Shown here: piece after piece, positions 21,618 to 43,290 of the stretch
How positions within the stretch are numbered: the stretch's first letter is position 1
How the letters are laid out: each line of letters starts with the position of its first letter
From: Shigella phage ESh24
Length of the DNA stretch: 64,000 nucleotides
Sequence record: ON528734
Strand: one strand, 5' to 3'
Position numbers and translations under genes: made by a program
Notes under the pieces: model-generated
What the model was told of the DNA's origin: nothing
Databases searched by the model: none
What the model saw: the letters and a program-made list of their open reading frames with translations, nothing else

Positions 21618-22820
21618 ATGAAAGTATGTATTTTTATGGCTCGAGGTCTTGAAGGTTGTGGTGTAACAAAATTCTCACTCGAGCAACGTGATTGGTTTAT
21701 TAAAAATGGTCATGAAGTAACTTTGGTTTATGCTAAAGATAAATCATTTACTCGTAATTGTGCGCATGATTATAAGTCATTTTCAATTCCGGTTTTATTG
21801 GCAAAAGAATATGATAAAACACTTAAGCTGGTAAATGATTGTGATATTCTAATTATCAATTCAGTTCCTGCTACTTCGGTTGAAGAAGACACTATTAATA
21901 ACTATAAAAAAATTATTGATAACATTAAACCTTCTGTTCGTGTTGTAGTTTATCAGCATGACCATTCTTCTCTTTCTTTGCGCCGAAATTTGGGATTAGA
22001 AGAAACTGTTCGTCGAGCTGATGTTATTTTTAGCCATTCTGATAATGGTGATTTTAATAAAGTTCTGATGAAAGAATGGTATCCAGAAACTGTTTCTCTG
22101 TTTGATGATATTGAAGAAGCACCGACCGTATACAACTTTCAGCCTCCGATGGATATTGCTAAGGTTCGGTCAACCTACTGGAAAGATGTTTCTGAAATTA
22201 ACATGAATATTAACCGTTGGATTGGTCGTACGACTACATGGAAAGGTTTTTATCAGATGTTTGATTTTCACGAAAAACATCTTAAACCTGCAGGACTAAG
22301 TACTATTATGGAAGGTCTGGAACGTTCTCCAGCGTTCATTCCTATTAAAGAAAAAGGAATTCCATACGAGTATTATCGTCTTCATCAAGTAGACCAAATT
22401 AAAATTGCTCCTAATTTGCCAACGCAAATTCTTGACCGTTATGTAAATAGCGAAATGCTTGAACGCATGAGTAAATCCGGTTTTGGTTATCAGCTGAGTA
22501 AATTAGATAAAAAATATCTACAACGTTCTTTAGAATATACTCATCTCGAGCTTGGTGCATGTGGAACAATTCCGGTATTTTGGAAATCTACTGGCGAAAA
22601 TTTAAAATTCCGTGTTGATAATACTCCTTTGACCTCGCATGATAGCGGTATCATTTGGTTTGATGAAAATGACATGGAATCAACATTTGAACGTATTAAA
22701 GAACTGTCATCTGACCGAACTCTTTATGACCGCGAACGCGAAAAAGCTTATGAATTTTTGTATCAGCATCAAGATTCAAGCTTCTGCTTTAAAGAACAGT
22801 TTGACATTATTACAAAATAA
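21618..22820 (+). CDS. a-gt: DNA alpha-glucosyltransferase
   Basis: 400 aa; position between 55 and 47; matches T4 AGT N-terminus MKVCIFMARGLEGCGVTKFSLEQ. Confidence 0.9.
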   Translation: MKVCIFMARGLEGCGVTKFSLEQRDWFIKNGHEVTLVYAKDKSFTRNCAHDYKSFSIPVLLAKEYDKTLKLVNDCDILIINSVPATSVEEDTINNYKKIIDNIKPSVRVVVYQHDHSSLSLRRNLGLEETVRRADVIFSHSDNGDFNKVLMKEWYPETVSLFDDIEEAPTVYNFQPPMDIAKVRSTYWKDVSEINMNINRWIGRTTTWKGFYQMFDFHEKHLKPAGLSTIMEGLERSPAFIPIKEKGIPYEYYRLHQVDQIKIAPNLPTQILDRYVNSEMLERMSKSGFGYQLSKLDKKYLQRSLEYTHLELGACGTIPVFWKSTGENLKFRVDNTPLTSHDSGIIWFDENDMESTFERIKELSSDRTLYDREREKAYEFLYQHQDSSFCFKEQFDIITK

Positions 22821-30377: not shown

Positions 30378-33074
30378 ATGAAAGAATTTTATATCTCTAT
30401 CGAAACAGTCGGAAATAACATTGTTGAACGTTATATTGATGAAAACGGAAAGGAACGTACTCGTGAAGTAGAATATCTTCCAACTATGTTTAGGCATTGT
30501 AAGGAAGAGTCAAAGTACAAAGACATCTATGGCAAAAATTGTGCTCCTCAAAAATTTCCATCAATGAAAGATGCTCGAGATTGGATGAAACGAATGGAAG
30601 ACATCGGTCTCGAAGCTCTCGGTATGAACGATTTTAAACTCGCTTATATCAGTGATACATACGGTTCAGAAATTGTTTATGACCGAAAATTTGTTCGTGT
30701 AGCTAACTGTGACATTGAGGTTACTGGCGATAAATTTCCTGACCCAATGAAAGCTGAATATGAAATTGATGCTATTACTCATTACGATTCAATTGATGAT
30801 CGTTTTTATGTTTTCGACCTTTTGAATTCAATGTATGGTTCAGTATCAAAATGGGATGCAAAGTTAGCTGCTAAGCTTGACTGTGAAGGTGGTGATGAAG
30901 TTCCTCAAGAAATTCTTGACCGAGTAATTTATATGCCATTCGATAATGAGCGTGATATGCTCATGGAATATATCAATCTCTGGGAACAGAAACGACCTGC
31001 TATTTTTACTGGTTGGAATATTGAGGGATTTGACGTTCCGTATATCATGAATCGCGTTAAAATGGTTCTCGGTGAACGTAGTATGAAACGCTTCTCTCCA
31101 ATCGGTCGAGTAAAATCTAAACTTATCCAAAATATGTACGGTAGCAAAGAAATTTATTCTATTGATGGCGTATCTGTTCTTGATTATTTAGATTTGTATA
31201 AGAAATTCGCATTTACTAATTTGCCGTCATTCTCTTTGGAATCAGTTGCTCAACATGAAACCAAAAAAGGTAAATTACCATACGATGGTCCTATTAATAA
31301 ACTTCGTGAGACTAATCATCAACGATATATCAGTTATAACATCATTGACGTAGAATCAGTTCAAGCAATTGATAAAATTCGCGGGTTTATCGATCTAGTT
31401 TTAAGTATGTCTTATTACGCTAAAATGCCTTTTTCCGGTGTAATGAGTCCTATTAAAACCTGGGATGCTATTATTTTTAACTCATTGAAAGGTGAACATA
31501 AGGTTATTCCTCAACAAGGTTCGCATGTTAAACAGAGTTTTCCGGGTGCATTTGTGTTTGAACCTAAACCAATTGCTCGTCGATATATTATGAGTTTTGA
31601 CTTGACGTCTCTGTATCCGAGCATTATTCGTCAGGTTAACATTAGTCCTGAGACTATTCGTGGTCAGTTTAAAGTTCATCCAATTCATGAATATATTGCA
31701 GGAACAGCTCCTAAACCGAGTGATGAATATTCTTGTTCTCCGAATGGATGGATGTATGATAAGCATCAAGAAGGTATCATTCCAAAGGAAATCGCTAAAG
31801 TATTTTTCCAGCGTAAAGACTGGAAAAAGAAAATGTTCGCTGAAGAAATGAATGCCGAAGCTATTAAAAAGATTATTATGAAAGGCGCAGGATCTTGTTC
31901 AACTAAACCAGAAGTTGAACGATATGTTAAGTTCAGTGATGATTTCTTAAATGAACTATCGAATTATACTGAATCTGTTCTCAATAGTTTGATTGAAGAG
32001 TGTGAAAAAGCAGCTACACTTGCTAACACAAATCAGCTGAACCGTAAAATTCTTATTAACAGTCTTTACGGTGCTCTTGGTAATATTCATTTCCGTTACT
32101 ATGATTTGCGAAATGCTACTGCTATCACAATTTTCGGCCAAGTTGGTATTCAGTGGATTGCTCGTAAAATTAATGAATATCTGAATAAAGTATGCGGAAC
32201 TAATGGCGAAGATTTCATTGCAGCAGGTGATACTGATTCGGTATATGTTTGTGTAGATAAAGTTATTGAAAAAGTCGGTCTTGACCGATTCAAAGAGCAG
32301 AACGATTTGGTTGAATTTATGAATCAGTTCGGTAAGAAAAAGATGGAACCTATGATTGATGTTGCATATCGTGAGTTATGTGATTATATGAATAACCGCG
32401 AGCATCTGATGCATATGGATCGTGAAGCTATTTCTTGCCCTCCGCTTGGTTCAAAGGGTGTTGGTGGATTTTGGAAAGCGAAAAAGCGTTATGCTCTGAA
32501 CGTTTATGATATGGAAGATAAGCGATTTGCTGAACCGCATCTAAAAATCATGGGTATGGAAACTCAGCAAAGTTCAACGCCTAAAGCGGTCCAAGAAGCT
32601 CTTGAAGAAAGTATCCGTCGTATTCTTCAAGAAGGCGAAGAGTCTGTTCAAGAATATTATAAGAACTTTGAGAAAGAATATCGTCAACTTGACTATAAAG
32701 TTATTGCTGAAGTAAAAACTGCGAACGATATAGCGAAATATGATGATAAAGGTTGGCCAGGATTTAAATGTCCGTTCCATATTCGTGGTGTGCTAACTTA
32801 TCGTCGAGCTGTTAGCGGTTTAGGTGTAGCTCCAATTTTGGATGGAAATAAAGTAATGGTTCTTCCATTACGTGAAGGAAATCCATTTGGTGACAAATGC
32901 ATTGCTTGGCCGTCGGGCACAGAACTTCCAAAAGAAATTCGTTCTGACGTACTGTCTTGGATTGACTACTCAACCTTGTTCCAAAAATCGTTTGTTAAAC
33001 CGCTTGCAGGCATGTGTGAATCGGCTGGTATGGACTATGAAGAAAAAGCTTCGTTAGACTTCCTGTTTGGCTGA
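30378..33074 (+). CDS. 43: DNA polymerase gp43 (family B, with 3'-5' exonuclease)
   Basis: 898 aa; exo motif CDIEV, pol motifs DLTSLYPS and YGDTDS-like AAGDTDS. Confidence 0.97.
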   Translation: MKEFYISIETVGNNIVERYIDENGKERTREVEYLPTMFRHCKEESKYKDIYGKNCAPQKFPSMKDARDWMKRMEDIGLEALGMNDFKLAYISDTYGSEIVYDRKFVRVANCDIEVTGDKFPDPMKAEYEIDAITHYDSIDDRFYVFDLLNSMYGSVSKWDAKLAAKLDCEGGDEVPQEILDRVIYMPFDNERDMLMEYINLWEQKRPAIFTGWNIEGFDVPYIMNRVKMVLGERSMKRFSPIGRVKSKLIQNMYGSKEIYSIDGVSVLDYLDLYKKFAFTNLPSFSLESVAQHETKKGKLPYDGPINKLRETNHQRYISYNIIDVESVQAIDKIRGFIDLVLSMSYYAKMPFSGVMSPIKTWDAIIFNSLKGEHKVIPQQGSHVKQSFPGAFVFEPKPIARRYIMSFDLTSLYPSIIRQVNISPETIRGQFKVHPIHEYIAGTAPKPSDEYSCSPNGWMYDKHQEGIIPKEIAKVFFQRKDWKKKMFAEEMNAEAIKKIIMKGAGSCSTKPEVERYVKFSDDFLNELSNYTESVLNSLIEECEKAATLANTNQLNRKILINSLYGALGNIHFRYYDLRNATAITIFGQVGIQWIARKINEYLNKVCGTNGEDFIAAGDTDSVYVCVDKVIEKVGLDRFKEQNDLVEFMNQFGKKKMEPMIDVAYRELCDYMNNREHLMHMDREAISCPPLGSKGVGGFWKAKKRYALNVYDMEDKRFAEPHLKIMGMETQQSSTPKAVQEALEESIRRILQEGEESVQEYYKNFEKEYRQLDYKVIAEVKTANDIAKYDDKGWPGFKCPFHIRGVLTYRRAVSGLGVAPILDGNKVMVLPLREGNPFGDKCIAWPSGTELPKEIRSDVLSWIDYSTLFQKSFVKPLAGMCESAGMDYEEKASLDFLFG

Positions 33075-33086
33075 TAGAATAAATCT

Positions 33087-33109
33087 AGGGACCTCCGGGT
33101 CCCTTTTTC
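33087..33109 (+). terminator. rho-independent terminator (GGGACC-UCCG-GGUCCC + T5)
   Basis: 6-bp GC stem + T run. Confidence 0.85.
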
Positions 33110-33190
33110 ATACAAGTAATATAAATCTATACTTAGGAAAAATAGATGATTCTGGACCCTTTGGATTCATTAAAAATTTTTCACAAAACT

Positions 33191-33222
33191 GTTTACATCC
33201 CTGTTCTTCCATGGTACTATAC
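33191..33222 (+). promoter_or_regulatory. T4-type early promoter with conserved leader cassette
   Basis: TTTTCACAAAACTGTTTACA...TGGTACTATACAACTATCAACTACTGATACAGATTTGGAGAATGAAATG. Confidence 0.75.
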
Positions 33223-33257
33223 AACTATCAACTACTGATACAGATTTGGAGAATGAA

Positions 33258-33638
33258 ATGAAAATCACTATTTTGGTTATTGCATTAGGTCTTACTGGTT
33301 GTGTAGCTCAAGGACCGGTAGTAAATCAGTCTGATGTAGGAAAAATTGTAAATTGTTCAAGTAAATTTTATAATCCTAATGTCAAGTGTTATAAAGAAGC
33401 TCCAAAGCAAACAGTAGAACAAATGCAGGCGAATTTTGACGAAGCTATTCGTCCAGATGAATCTGCTCAAGCATATCGTAATTCGGATGTAATTACACGC
33501 GAAGAAAAAATTGAAAACTACTGCGCCGAGCTTTGGGCTAATTGGGCTAATAATTACCAATGGCGTACTGGTAAAAATGCTCCGATGGAGTATGTAGTGA
33601 ATTCTTATAATTCATGTGTAAAAAATTTGACTAAGTGA
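33258..33638 (+). CDS. predicted lipoprotein (126 aa)
   Basis: Signal peptide with lipobox LTGC. Confidence 0.6.
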   Translation: MKITILVIALGLTGCVAQGPVVNQSDVGKIVNCSSKFYNPNVKCYKEAPKQTVEQMQANFDEAIRPDESAQAYRNSDVITREEKIENYCAELWANWANNYQWRTGKNAPMEYVVNSYNSCVKNLTK

Positions 33639-33645
33639 GGAAAAC

Positions 33646-33897
33646 ATGGAAACTTTAGTAGCAGGTTCAATTTTTATGGTTTTAGTTTCAGGTGTGTTGG
33701 CTATTATTATATACATGCTTCCATGGTTTATCGCCTTGATGCGTGGGTCAAAATCGACAGTAGGAATCTTTTTCACATCTTTACTGTTTAACTGGTCAAT
33801 TATTGGTTGGTTTATTACATTTATTTGGTCAATTGCGGGTGAAACTAAAAAGTCTGCACAACCAAATCAGGTAATTATCATCAGAGAGAAGGAATGA
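33646..33897 (+). CDS. imm: immunity (superinfection exclusion) membrane protein
   Basis: 83 aa, two TM segments; position between 43 and 42. Confidence 0.88.
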   Translation: METLVAGSIFMVLVSGVLAIIIYMLPWFIALMRGSKSTVGIFFTSLLFNWSIIGWFITFIWSIAGETKKSAQPNQVIIIREKE

Positions 33898-34043
33898 AAA
33901 GCAAAATTATAACAGTGTTGCTTTTAATCTTGATGATTATAATAAGTATATACTATAGTGTAACGGTTCCTCTTATGATTCCAACTATTATTTTAGGTTG
34001 GGGTTTATTACTGTTACAAGTTAAATATGAATGTATCAATTGA
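33894..34043 (+). CDS. small membrane protein (49 aa)
   Basis: ATGA overlap with imm; hydrophobic. Confidence 0.4.
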   Translation: MKSKIITVLLLILMIIISIYYSVTVPLMIPTIILGWGLLLLQVKYECIN

Positions 34044-34050
34044 GGTTTAA

Positions 34051-34791
34051 ATGATTAGTGACTCTATGACAGTTGAAGAAATCCGTCTTCATTTAGGGCT
34101 TGCATTAAAAGAAAAAGATTTCGTAGTTGATAAAACTGGTGTTAAAACTATTGAAATTATTGGCGCATCATTTGTAGCAGATGAACCGTTTATTTTTGGC
34201 GCTCTTAATGATGAATACATTCAGCGTGAACTTGAATGGTATAAATCTAAGAGTTTGTTTGTTAAAGATATTCCAGGTGAAACACCAAAGATTTGGCAGC
34301 AGGTAGCATCTTCTAAAGGTGAAATTAACTCGAATTATGGTTGGGCTATCTGGTCAGAAGATAACTATGCTCAATATGACATGTGTTTAGCTGAACTTGG
34401 TCAAAATCCTGATTCTCGACGTGGTATCATGATTTATACTCGTCCATCCATGCAATTTGACTACAATAAAGATGGTATGTCAGATTTCATGTGTACTAAT
34501 ACAGTACAGTACCTGATTCGTGATAAGAAAGTCAATGCAGTAGTAAGCATGCGCTCAAATGACGTGGTCTTCGGATTCCGTAATGATTATGCATGGCAAA
34601 AATACGTATTAGATAAATTAGTATCTGATTTGAATGCAGGCGATTCAACTCGTCAGTATAAAGCAGGTTCTATTATATGGAATGTCGGAAGTCTTCATGT
34701 ATATTCTCGTCATTTTTACTTGGTTGATCATTGGTGGAATACTGGCGAAACTCATATTGTGAAAAAAGACTATAAAGGTGAGTGGAAATGA
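34051..34791 (+). CDS. 42: dCMP hydroxymethylase gp42
   Basis: 246 aa; thymidylate-synthase-like; matches T4 gp42. Confidence 0.93.
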   Translation: MISDSMTVEEIRLHLGLALKEKDFVVDKTGVKTIEIIGASFVADEPFIFGALNDEYIQRELEWYKSKSLFVKDIPGETPKIWQQVASSKGEINSNYGWAIWSEDNYAQYDMCLAELGQNPDSRRGIMIYTRPSMQFDYNKDGMSDFMCTNTVQYLIRDKKVNAVVSMRSNDVVFGFRNDYAWQKYVLDKLVSDLNAGDSTRQYKAGSIIWNVGSLHVYSRHFYLVDHWWNTGETHIVKKDYKGEWK

Positions 34792-35630
34792 TTCAATTCG
34801 TAATTCCAAGCTATCAACGTGTAGGGGCAGTTTCTGCCATTGATATGTTTCCGACTGATTATGAACCTCATATTGTAGTGCGTGAACACGAAGAAAAAGC
34901 TTATTATGATGCCTATGGGTCTAAAGCTAAAATTATAACTATTCCTGATGATGTAAACGGAATTGCCGGTACTCGTAAAGCAATTACTGATATGTATGCA
35001 GGTCAACGAATCTGGATGATTGACGATGATACTACTATTCGTATGAGTTCAATGCGAAAAAGAGATGACCGTCGTTGTGTAGATAAAGTCAATCAATTAA
35101 CCCGTGAACAGTTCTATGAATTGATTCAATACGTTGAAGATGCCATGGATTGCGGGTATTATCACGGTCATGCTCGGCTACCAATTTTTAAAATTACTTC
35201 ATCTTGGGGTAATTATCGTGAAAATTCATATGGATTCACGAATACATGGTATGACCTTGGAAAACTTACGACAGAACAAATTGGGTATGGAAAAATTGAT
35301 TTATGCGAAGATATGTATGCATTTCTCAATTTAATTAATCAAGGTTATCCGCATTTGGCCTTGTTCAAATATCTTGTTGTATCCGGAAAAGCACAGGCTC
35401 CTGGCGGGTGCAGTTCAATTCGTAGTAATTCTAAACATAATAGAGCGCTTGAGCAGATTAATAGAGAGTTTCCAGAGCAAGCTCGTTGGAAAACTTCTAA
35501 TATTGAAAAACGAAAATCGTTGGGTGAAGAAGATGAACCATTAAAGGTTCTTCGCATGTGTGTTTCGCGCAAAGAAAAATCAGAAGCATTTCATAAGTTT
35601 AATGCTATTCATCCGATAGCAGTTGATTAA
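34788..35630 (+). CDS. GT-A-type glycosyltransferase with DxD motif; likely T2/T6-type beta-glucosyl-HMC-alpha-glucosyltransferase
   Basis: 280 aa; IWMIDDDTTI DxD motif; sits where T4 has beta-gt, which it does not resemble. Confidence 0.65.
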   Translation: MIQFVIPSYQRVGAVSAIDMFPTDYEPHIVVREHEEKAYYDAYGSKAKIITIPDDVNGIAGTRKAITDMYAGQRIWMIDDDTTIRMSSMRKRDDRRCVDKVNQLTREQFYELIQYVEDAMDCGYYHGHARLPIFKITSSWGNYRENSYGFTNTWYDLGKLTTEQIGYGKIDLCEDMYAFLNLINQGYPHLALFKYLVVSGKAQAPGGCSSIRSNSKHNRALEQINREFPEQARWKTSNIEKRKSLGEEDEPLKVLRMCVSRKEKSEAFHKFNAIHPIAVD

Positions 35631-35707
35631 TGCCTAAATTTATTGTGTTATAATTACTCTATCTTTAACCAGTGAGGAAAATATAATGATGCCTATGGAA
35701 AAAATGA

Positions 35708-36889
35708 ATGTCTATTGCAGATTTAAAATCCCGTTTGATTAAAGCTTCCACTTCTAAAATGACTGCTGAACTGACTACATCTAAATTCTTTAATGAAAAG
35801 GATGTAATCCGTACAAAAATCCCAATGCTTAATATTGCTATTTCTGGTGCGATTGATGGCGGTATGCAGTCTGGTTTAACTATTTTCGCAGGGCCTTCTA
35901 AACACTTTAAATCAAATATGTCTTTGACTATGGTTGCGGCATATTTGAACAAATATCCTGACGCGGTTTGTCTATTCTATGATAGTGAATTTGGTATTAC
36001 TCCAGCTTATTTGCGATCTATGGGAGTTGACCCGGAACGAGTAATTCATACACCAATCCAGTCAGTTGAACAGCTGAAAATTGATATGGTGAACCAGCTT
36101 GAAGCTATTGAGCGTGGTGAAAAAGTTATTGTATTCATCGACTCAATTGGTAATATGGCTTCCAAGAAAGAAACGGAAGATGCCTTGAATGAAAAATCTG
36201 TGGCAGATATGACTCGTGCTAAATCACTGAAGTCATTATTCCGTATTGTTACTCCTTATTTTAGTATTAAAAATATCCCATGTGTTGCGGTTAACCATAC
36301 AATTGAAACAATTGAAATGTTTAGTAAAACCGTGATGACAGGTGGTACAGGCGTAATGTATTCGGCTGATACCGTATTCATTATCGGTAAACGTCAGATT
36401 AAAGATGGTTCTGATCTTCAAGGGTATCAATTTGTTCTAAATGTAGAAAAATCTCGTACCGTTAAAGAAAAAAGTAAATTCTTTATTGATGTTAAATTTG
36501 ACGGCGGTATCGATCCTTATTCTGGATTGTTAGATATGGCTCTAGAATTAGGATTCGTGGTAAAACCTAAAAATGGTTGGTATGCTCGTGAATTTCTTGA
36601 TGAAGAAACCGGCGAGATGATTCGCGAAGAAAAATCTTGGCGTGCAAAAGATACTAATTGCACTACATTCTGGGGTCCTTTATTTAAGCATCAACCATTC
36701 CGAGATGCTATTAAACGTGCTTATCAGTTAGGTGCTATTGATAGTAATGAAATTGTTGAAGCTGAAGTTGATGAATTAATTAACTCAAAAGTTGAAAAAT
36801 TTAAATCTCCAGAAAGTAAAAGTAAATCAGCTGCTGATTTAGAAACTGACCTAGATCAGCTAAGTGATATGGAAGAATTTAATGAATAA
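35708..36889 (+). CDS. uvsX: recombinase UvsX (RecA-like)
   Basis: 393 aa; Walker A GPSKHFKS; matches T4 UvsX. Confidence 0.95.
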   Translation: MSIADLKSRLIKASTSKMTAELTTSKFFNEKDVIRTKIPMLNIAISGAIDGGMQSGLTIFAGPSKHFKSNMSLTMVAAYLNKYPDAVCLFYDSEFGITPAYLRSMGVDPERVIHTPIQSVEQLKIDMVNQLEAIERGEKVIVFIDSIGNMASKKETEDALNEKSVADMTRAKSLKSLFRIVTPYFSIKNIPCVAVNHTIETIEMFSKTVMTGGTGVMYSADTVFIIGKRQIKDGSDLQGYQFVLNVEKSRTVKEKSKFFIDVKFDGGIDPYSGLLDMALELGFVVKPKNGWYAREFLDEETGEMIREEKSWRAKDTNCTTFWGPLFKHQPFRDAIKRAYQLGAIDSNEIVEAEVDELINSKVEKFKSPESKSKSAADLETDLDQLSDMEEFNE

Positions 36890-41371: not shown

Positions 41372-42711
<1,340 letters not shown>

Positions 42712-42771: not shown

Positions 42772-43290
42772 ATGGCTCACTTTAATGAATGTTCACAACT
42801 GATCGAAGGCGCTGATAAAGCTCAAAATGAATATTGGGATATTCTCGGTGATGAAAAAGACCCGCTGCAGGTTATGCTTGACATGCAGAAATCTTTGCAG
42901 GTTCGTTTAGCTAAAGATAAACCTGAATATAACCGTCATCCTGATGATTTGGCTACTGCAGGTGAAGTTGTTGATTGGCTGCGTAATCAGAAAGATTATA
43001 TTGACGATGAATTCCGTGAACTTCTGACTTCTCTTGGTGGTATGAGTAATGGTGAAAAAGACGCATCTGCTGTATGGAAACCTTGGAAGTCGCAGCATGG
43101 TGAACGTCGTGAAACTCTGATTACTGATTTGTCTCCACAGGACCAGTTAGAAATCAAATTCGAAATGATTGATATTCTCCATTTTGTTCTGAACATGTTT
43201 CAAGGTCTTGGTCTTACAGCAGAAGAAATCTTTAAACTTTATTATCTGAAAAATGCTGAAAATTTCGCTCGTCAAGACCGAGGTTATTAA
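42772..43290 (+). CDS. 56: dCTP/dCDP pyrophosphatase gp56
   Basis: 172 aa starting MAHFNECSQL; MazG-like. Confidence 0.9.
   Translation: MAHFNECSQLIEGADKAQNEYWDILGDEKDPLQVMLDMQKSLQVRLAKDKPEYNRHPDDLATAGEVVDWLRNQKDYIDDEFRELLTSLGGMSNGEKDASAVWKPWKSQHGERRETLITDLSPQDQLEIKFEMIDILHFVLNMFQGLGLTAEEIFKLYYLKNAENFARQDRGY

Follow-up and report, generated by a model that had tools for sequence, protein, structure and literature searches.

The DNA analyzed in this study is a stretch of 64,000 nucleotides (nt) from Shigella phage ESh24 (sequence record ON528734), hereafter called the window, to which all positions refer. It is a segment of a T4-like (Tequatrovirus) genome with ~35% G+C and shares 96–97% identity with many phages of Escherichia, Shigella and Yersinia. 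Between gene 42 and uvsX of this segment, both of which were confirmed by Pfam matches, lies a gene for a protein of 280 amino acids (aa) that is almost certainly the beta-glucosyl-HMC-alpha-glucosyltransferase of the T2/T6 type (ba-gt, also known as ggt; Pfam family TAGT), where HMC, or hmC, is 5-hydroxymethylcytosine. A preliminary description of this DNA, made from the letters of the sequence, had noted a 280-aa protein at this position and proposed the same identity for it. The mechanical list of open reading frames (ORFs) has this ORF beginning with GTG (34782–35630, 282 aa), and the ATG that gives 280 aa is the annotated start of ba-gt in T2, T6, QOTSP, TB37 and BGP. This ATG shares the sequence ATGA with the TGA stop codon of gene 42. 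Given this overlap and the presence of GGTGAGTGG directly 5' of the start, translational coupling of ba-gt to gene 42 is suggested. Our analysis covered the orthology of the protein, the family to which it belongs, its predicted fold and conserved motifs, the synteny of its gene and the presence of alpha-gt, and the reaction and its effects on host defences are taken from the literature on orthologs.

Over 280 aa, the protein is 98.6% identical to its T2 homolog and 97.9% identical to its T6 homolog, both of which are annotated as beta-glucosyl-HMC-alpha-glucosyltransferases. It also matches PHROG 842, a group of the same name, over residues 1–275 with an E value of 1.8e-88, which places it in that group. 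The BLAST comparison that the preliminary description had proposed as a check thus supports its identification, which is correct: the gene is the already known ba-gt in its usual place, and for the window its assignment is routine annotation. The exact protein has been deposited as URY13033.1 (“glucosyl transferase,” Shigella phage ESh24), which belongs to a cluster of 485 sequences at 90% identity, and a tblastn search of 50,697 phage records found homologs in 688 of them, 471 with at least 95% identity, numbers far too high for an ORF that arose by chance. The only Pfam family matched was PF20691 TAGT (TET-associated glycosyltransferase), with a score of 38.4 bits above the gathering cut-off of 27.5 and with residues 4–207 aligned to profile positions 3–205 of 205; a search of NCBIfam with the protein matched no family. 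An exhaustive profile search for the family returned 2136 cluster representatives at E ≤ 0.001. Distant homologs with 63–66 and 47% identity adjoin the dCMP hydroxymethylase gene in T4-like phages of Klebsiella, Enterobacter and Salmonella, and for a 47% identical homolog of a Serratia phage the neighboring genes carry no annotation.

The order of 42, ba-gt and uvsX is common to T2, T6, QOTSP, TB37, Solly, BGP, CP, EH2 and Some. The ba-gt genes of T2 and T6 have the same length, slot, ATGA overlap and alpha-gt partner as that of the window, and the presence of alpha-gt without any match to beta-gt in the window is the combination found in the ba-gt group. Four residues differ between the T2 and window proteins, including residue 11 (H11 in T2 and R11 in the window), while six positions differ between those of T6 and the window, one of which is an amber codon in the T6 record MH550421. 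L18I and R46K are private to the window protein in comparison with T2 and T6, and none of these differences gives a sign of a different function. The window protein also keeps the invariant R, D, D, G and G positions of the PF20691 TAGT family, although it departs from the pattern of that family in two respects. In the family, the base is made on DNA by a TET/JBP dioxygenase, whereas in the window it is made on the nucleotide by a hydroxymethylase of the thymidylate synthase type, and the acceptor of the window enzyme is a sugar that is already on the base.

Comparison with T4 by blastn delimits the slot in which ba-gt resides. The gene 42 stretch is 96.7% identical to T4 at the nt level as far as position 34773 (T4 25497), where the similarity ends; it restarts at 35720 (T4 23555), at the start of uvsX, with 93.2% nt identity from there on, and nothing is aligned between. 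According to the T4 annotation, the gene order in T4 is 42, beta-gt, segA and uvsX, and segA is not found in the spacer of the window. Thus, the ba-gt cassette replaces both beta-gt and segA of T4 (Table 1), and the enzyme occupies the slot of T4 beta-gt, as had been proposed. The position of TAGT, syntenic with that of T4 beta-gt, has been stated explicitly (PMC13390438), and alpha-gt with TAGT is the common set in Tequatrovirus, while the alpha-gt and beta-gt pair of T4 is rare (6 of 753 genomes; PMC13216743). The lack of resemblance to T4 beta-gt (PF09198, GT-B) that had been noted was also borne out, as the best BLASTP match between the two proteins had an E value of 2.2, Pfam identified only PF20691 in the window protein, and a tblastn search of the whole window with T4 beta-gt gave nothing below E = 1.4. 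T4 beta-gt (GT-B, GT63, PDB 1JG7) shares with the window enzyme the slot, the donor uridine diphosphate (UDP)-glucose, the beta bond and a role in the protection of hmC-containing DNA. It differs in its fold, which is GT-B rather than the GT-A predicted for the window enzyme here and in PMC13216743, and in its acceptor, which is the hydroxyl of hmC for T4 beta-gt and the 6-OH of the first glucose for the window enzyme.

The fold and the putative active site were examined with a family alignment of 82 homologs, in which the mean column identity was 24%. R11, D80, D175, G186 and G207 were invariant in these homologs, and all of them are kept in the window protein; I6, P7, R63, D79, D81, L180, G206, R212 and P229 were at least 90% conserved, and of these the window protein likewise has R63, D79, D81 and R212. 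The motif IWMIDDDTTI, from which a DxD-containing glycosyltransferase of the GT-A type had been predicted, comprises residues 75–84 (35010–35039), and the conservation of its DDD among the 82 homologs identifies it as the central acidic motif of the family. Sequence searches of the PDB with the single protein yielded nothing meaningful, and a profile search gave AvpGT as its best match at a weak E value of 0.43, the other matches being spurious ones to polycystin. Given that no solved structure was detectable by sequence, fold comparison was needed. AlphaFold2 run on the family alignment produced a model with a mean predicted local distance difference test score (pLDDT) of 94.8 and a predicted template modeling score (pTM) of 0.92, whose best structural matches were GT-A/GT2-like glycosyltransferases, placing it, with its single Rossmann-like alpha/beta/alpha domain, in the GT-A fold as expected from the motif. 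The TAGT of T6 was modeled independently as GT-A, sister to GT2, in a 2026 paper (PMC13216743), which agrees with the model obtained here.

The ba-gt of T6 in NC_054907/AP018814 (L002:2501-3340) is without one Asp of the DDD and encodes 279 aa, and in MH550421 (L004:762-1604) codon 10 is an amber TAG and the annotated protein begins at a Met downstream of it. Both public versions of the T6 gene thus carry a lesion, which may reflect mutation of the stock or an error in sequencing. The “DD” of NC_054907 was considered as a mark that would tell T6-type from T2-type enzymes and was rejected, as MH550421 and all the other listed records have DDD, which follows from their 204 bp compared to 201 bp in NC_054907.

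The predicted fold and the N-terminal PxY(N/Q)R loop are shared with inverting GT-A enzymes of the GT2 family, such as TarS and TarP of S. aureus, AvpGT, SpsA and K4CP, and so are the motif of the DxD type and, further along the chain, an acidic ED motif. These enzymes are, however, only 7–15% identical to the window protein and give no significant sequence match, and the acceptor of the window enzyme, unlike theirs, is a DNA-bound sugar. By analogy with them, and in view of its DDD motif and the beta linkage of gentiobiose, the window enzyme may depend on a divalent metal and use an inverting mechanism. The preliminary description had named homology to a sugar transferase that acts on lipopolysaccharide or protein as a finding that would speak against it, and the nearest solved structures do act on wall teichoic acid, polysaccharides and lipid-linked glycans. 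That the gene encodes a GT2-type transferase with such a non-DNA acceptor (lipopolysaccharide, a teichoic-acid-like polymer or protein) is nevertheless exceedingly improbable, as it is contradicted by T6 genetics and the likeness is at the level of the fold only.

The literature on orthologs provides a function for the T2/T6-type ba-gt. Homologous ba-gt enzymes are the makers of gentiobiosyl-hmC (PMC6024577, PMC13160076). DNA of T6 with ba-gt deleted contains alpha-glucosyl-hmC only, presumably at ~75% of cytosines, and can be degraded in vitro by the Brig1 glycosylase (PMC11078745), and the glucosidase BapA frees glucose from DNA of T6 with the gene (g-gt) deleted, but not from wild-type T6 DNA (PMC13160076). 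The Tequatrovirus phages of the Durham collection with alpha-gt and TAGT but without beta-gt were found by liquid chromatography–mass spectrometry (LC-MS) to contain 5-hmdC, alpha-glucosyl-hmdC and alpha-gentiobiosyl-hmdC (PMC13390438), and in six of these Durham phages the ba-gt protein is 2–4 residues from that of the window. By analogy with the T6 deletions and the LC-MS results from these relatives, the window enzyme is expected to transfer glucose from UDP-glucose in a beta-1,6 linkage to alpha-glucosyl-hmC.

Given that the slot is identical to that of T4 beta-gt, the enzyme might instead glucosylate bare hmC directly, as an analog of T4 beta-gt, and in some phages a TAGT homolog stands alone, with neither alpha-gt nor beta-gt, and may use the unglucosylated base (PMC13216743). 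This is very unlikely for the window enzyme: T2 and T6 retain ~25% bare hmC despite having ba-gt, the beta-glucosyl form was not found by LC-MS in the Durham phages with the equal gene set (PMC13390438), and the deletion of ba-gt from T6 left alpha-glucosyl-hmC with no separate beta-glucosyl fraction lost (PMC11078745).

In the proposed pathway of gentiobiosyl-hmC synthesis, cytosine would be replaced by hmC through the products of genes 42 and 56, and alpha-gt would add an alpha-linked glucose to most of the hmC in newly replicated DNA. The ORF for alpha-gt, which the preliminary description had correctly located, matches the crystal structure of T4 alpha-gt (1XV5) over its full length with 857 bits. 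The ba-gt enzyme, which is probably an early product translated together with that of gene 42, would then add a second glucose from UDP-glucose onto the first through a beta-1,6 bond to form gentiobiosyl-hmC. DDD would hold the UDP-sugar and metal, and D175 would be the likely base. A GT2-like, metal-dependent inverting mechanism would convert UDP-alpha-glucose to a beta linkage, which would fit the beta-1,6 bond of gentiobiose. The arabinosyl transferases of Mosigvirus (RB69, Bas46/47 and NP) similarly add a second sugar to a glycosylated cytosine derivative and alter sensitivity to defences (PMC13390438, PMC13216743), but that system is set apart by its description, with another sugar, another base precursor (5-hydroxy-dC) and other genes.

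Whether a given host defence can attack a T-even phage depends on the kind of sugar that its hmC carries. Alpha-glucosyl-hmC is excised by Brig1, which does not, however, degrade the gentiobiosyl-rich DNA of T6 in vitro (PMC11078745); BapA is unable to strip gentiobiose, and enzymes of the GmrSD type still act on both forms (PMC13160076, PMC13216743). The effect on host defences that was anticipated in the preliminary description is therefore seen in T6, where deletions alter the sensitivity to Brig1 and BapA. Knowledge of the alpha-gt and ba-gt content helps predict host range with respect to such systems, for instance in the choice of therapeutic phages.

Mono- and di-glucosylated hmC had been predicted for this phage with no amount given for the latter, and both forms are found by LC-MS in the DNA of the phages with nearly identical enzymes described above. 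Judged from the gene content, bare, mono-glucosylated and di-glucosylated hmC are all expected in its DNA. For the extent of di-glucosylation, the window enzyme was compared to the enzymes of phages with measured DNA composition. T2, in which ~5% of hmC is gentiobiosylated, has an allele with R11H and P251S. BGP, Geo and EL, in which hmC, alpha-glucosyl-hmC and gentiobiosyl-hmC occur at ~1:2:2, have an allele with seven substitutions (I50V, M89I, R95K, C97R, V101I, A202S and Q203H); the ba-gt DNA of Geo is identical to that of BGP (L008:26198-27040), and that of EL (L014:1-843) is 99.2% identical. None of these changes is found in QOTSP, TB37, Solly, CP, EH2 and Some (six of the seven phages of their class), in which about two thirds of hmC is gentiobiosylated, or in T6 (~72%). 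The window allele has R11 and none of the seven substitutions, carries the private L18I and R46K, and is 2 residues from the enzymes of TB37, Solly and EH2. Thus, we would expect, with low confidence, T6-like DNA in which at least about two thirds of hmC is di-glucosylated, little is mono-glucosylated and the rest is bare.

Codon 11 of ba-gt (PV648364, L001:2531-2533, in T2; Table 1 for the window) encodes H11 in T2 and R11 in the window, T6, RB14 and nine other phages. H11 is found in all seven T2 records and in SV76, which are the only phage records with an exact match to the 130-bp stretch around it. RB14, whose allele is the nearest to that of T2, differs from T2 over these 130 bp only at codon 11, with CGT in place of CAT. 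Pattern scans of IMG/VR for the context of codon 11 returned 5 matches for R11 and 0 for H11, which are small numbers.

These comparisons bear on whether the window protein is a ba-gt ortholog that works poorly, like that of T2, so that the DNA would be mono-alpha-glucosylated with a few percent of gentiobiosyl-hmC. The T2 enzyme is 98.6% identical and yet makes only ~5% gentiobiosyl-hmC (PMC6024577, PMC13160076), and two substitutions are private to the window protein. However, R11H of T2 falls on a position that is invariant in the 82 homologs, whereas the window protein keeps all the invariant residues; its L18I and R46K are both conservative changes, the latter at a position that varies within the family; and the enzymes of TB37, Solly and EH2, so close to that of the window, belong to phages with about two thirds gentiobiosyl-hmC (PMC13390438). 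Because R11 is intact, we consider a hypomorph like that of T2 possible but unlikely.

The same comparisons raise the possibility that natural ba-gt alleles set the share of mono- and di-glucosylation, in which R11H would explain ~5% in T2 as opposed to ~72% in T6 and the seven-substitution allele would explain the 1:2:2 ratio. This idea, for which no statement was found in the literature examined, is tentative and rather doubtful, and the correlation is confounded by relatedness and covers ba-gt alleles. If it is true, the window allele predicts mostly di-glucosylated, T6-like DNA. The correlation between allele and ratio, chiefly that for R11H of T2, is a small testable by-product of this study.

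Several points weigh against the assignment of a gentiobiosyl-forming ba-gt to this phage and against T6-like DNA. The case for this phage consists of sequence comparison and the literature on orthologs. There is no solved TAGT structure, and identity to the best PDB matches does not exceed 15%, so the catalytic residues in Table 1 are assigned by analogy. The gentiobiosyl share ranges from 5 to about 70% among enzymes that are at least 97% identical, so that sequence does not fix the ratio of mono- to di-glucosylation. A dam gene and an ORF of 186 aa are common to the window and the Durham phages of intermediate ratio (PMC13390438). Finally, the window is a 64-kb part of the genome, outside which a second transferase could sit.

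The 186-aa ORF (phrog_8706, no Pfam match) lies directly 5' of the gene for a Dam-type N6-adenine methyltransferase (PF02086, 174 bits), the two spanning 41372–42711 of the window. The pair is also present in BGP and is lacking in EH2, where primase and dCTPase almost adjoin, separated only by a small ORF on the reverse strand.

Table 1. Positions of ba-gt, its conserved motifs and related genes in the window.
Feature	Position	Strand	Evidence or remark
ba-gt / ggt / TAGT, beta-glucosyl-HMC-alpha-glucosyltransferase	34788..35630	+	280 aa plus stop; ORF, T2/T6 identity, PF20691, PHROG 842
R11 in N-terminal IPSYQR, GT2-like “PxYNR” loop, putative nucleotide-binding role	34818..34820	+	Invariant in 82 homologs; aligns with IPTYNR of AvpGT (9jma_A)
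DDD (D79-D80-D81), DxD-type motif, expected to bind metal and nucleotide sugar	35022..35030	+	D80 invariant; aligns with DDD of GT2 enzyme AvpGT (9jma_A)
E174-D175, candidate catalytic base of an inverting GT-A enzyme, by analogy with GT2	35307..35312	+	D175 invariant; sub-threshold pairing with “EED” of AvpGT
GGCSxxR (G206, G207, R212), C-terminal to the Pfam domain	35403..35423	+	G207 invariant; G206 and R212 at least 90% conserved
Cassette swapped relative to T4	34774..35719	.	946 bp here, 1941 bp in T4 (beta-gt and segA)
Gene 42, dCMP hydroxymethylase (hmC precursor)	34051..34791	+	PF00303, thymidylate synthase family; gene 42 annotation in relatives
uvsX, downstream neighbor of ba-gt	35708-36889		PF21134 at 132.8 bits and RecA
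alpha-gt, DNA alpha-glucosyltransferase (makes the acceptor alpha-glucosyl-hmC)	21618..22820	+	PF11440 (AGT), 786 bits
Gene 56, dCTPase/dUTPase of the hmC pathway, context only	42772..43290	+	Pfam dUTPase_2; ATG at 42772

In length and position, gene 56 matches the gene annotated as dCTP pyrophosphatase in phage BGP. No Rfam family reached its gathering score across positions 1–64000. Upstream of gene 42, between it and imm (33646–33897), is found a very hydrophobic ORF of 49 aa (33894–34043; phrog_3610), which carries an annotation in T2 and in the Durham phages and for which the T4 reference record is without a feature.

A sigma-70 scan of positions 33000–36000 identified 15 promoter-like sites compared to 12.8 expected, and no terminator was found between gene 42 and ba-gt in a scan of the same region. 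The spacer of 77 bp between ba-gt and uvsX (35631–35707) holds TGTTATAAT, an extended −10 site with TATAAT at 35649–35654, which is absent from the list of sites returned by the sigma-70 scan. Approximately 11 bp 5' of TGTTATAAT is ATGCCTAA, which resembles the MotA box of T4 middle promoters.
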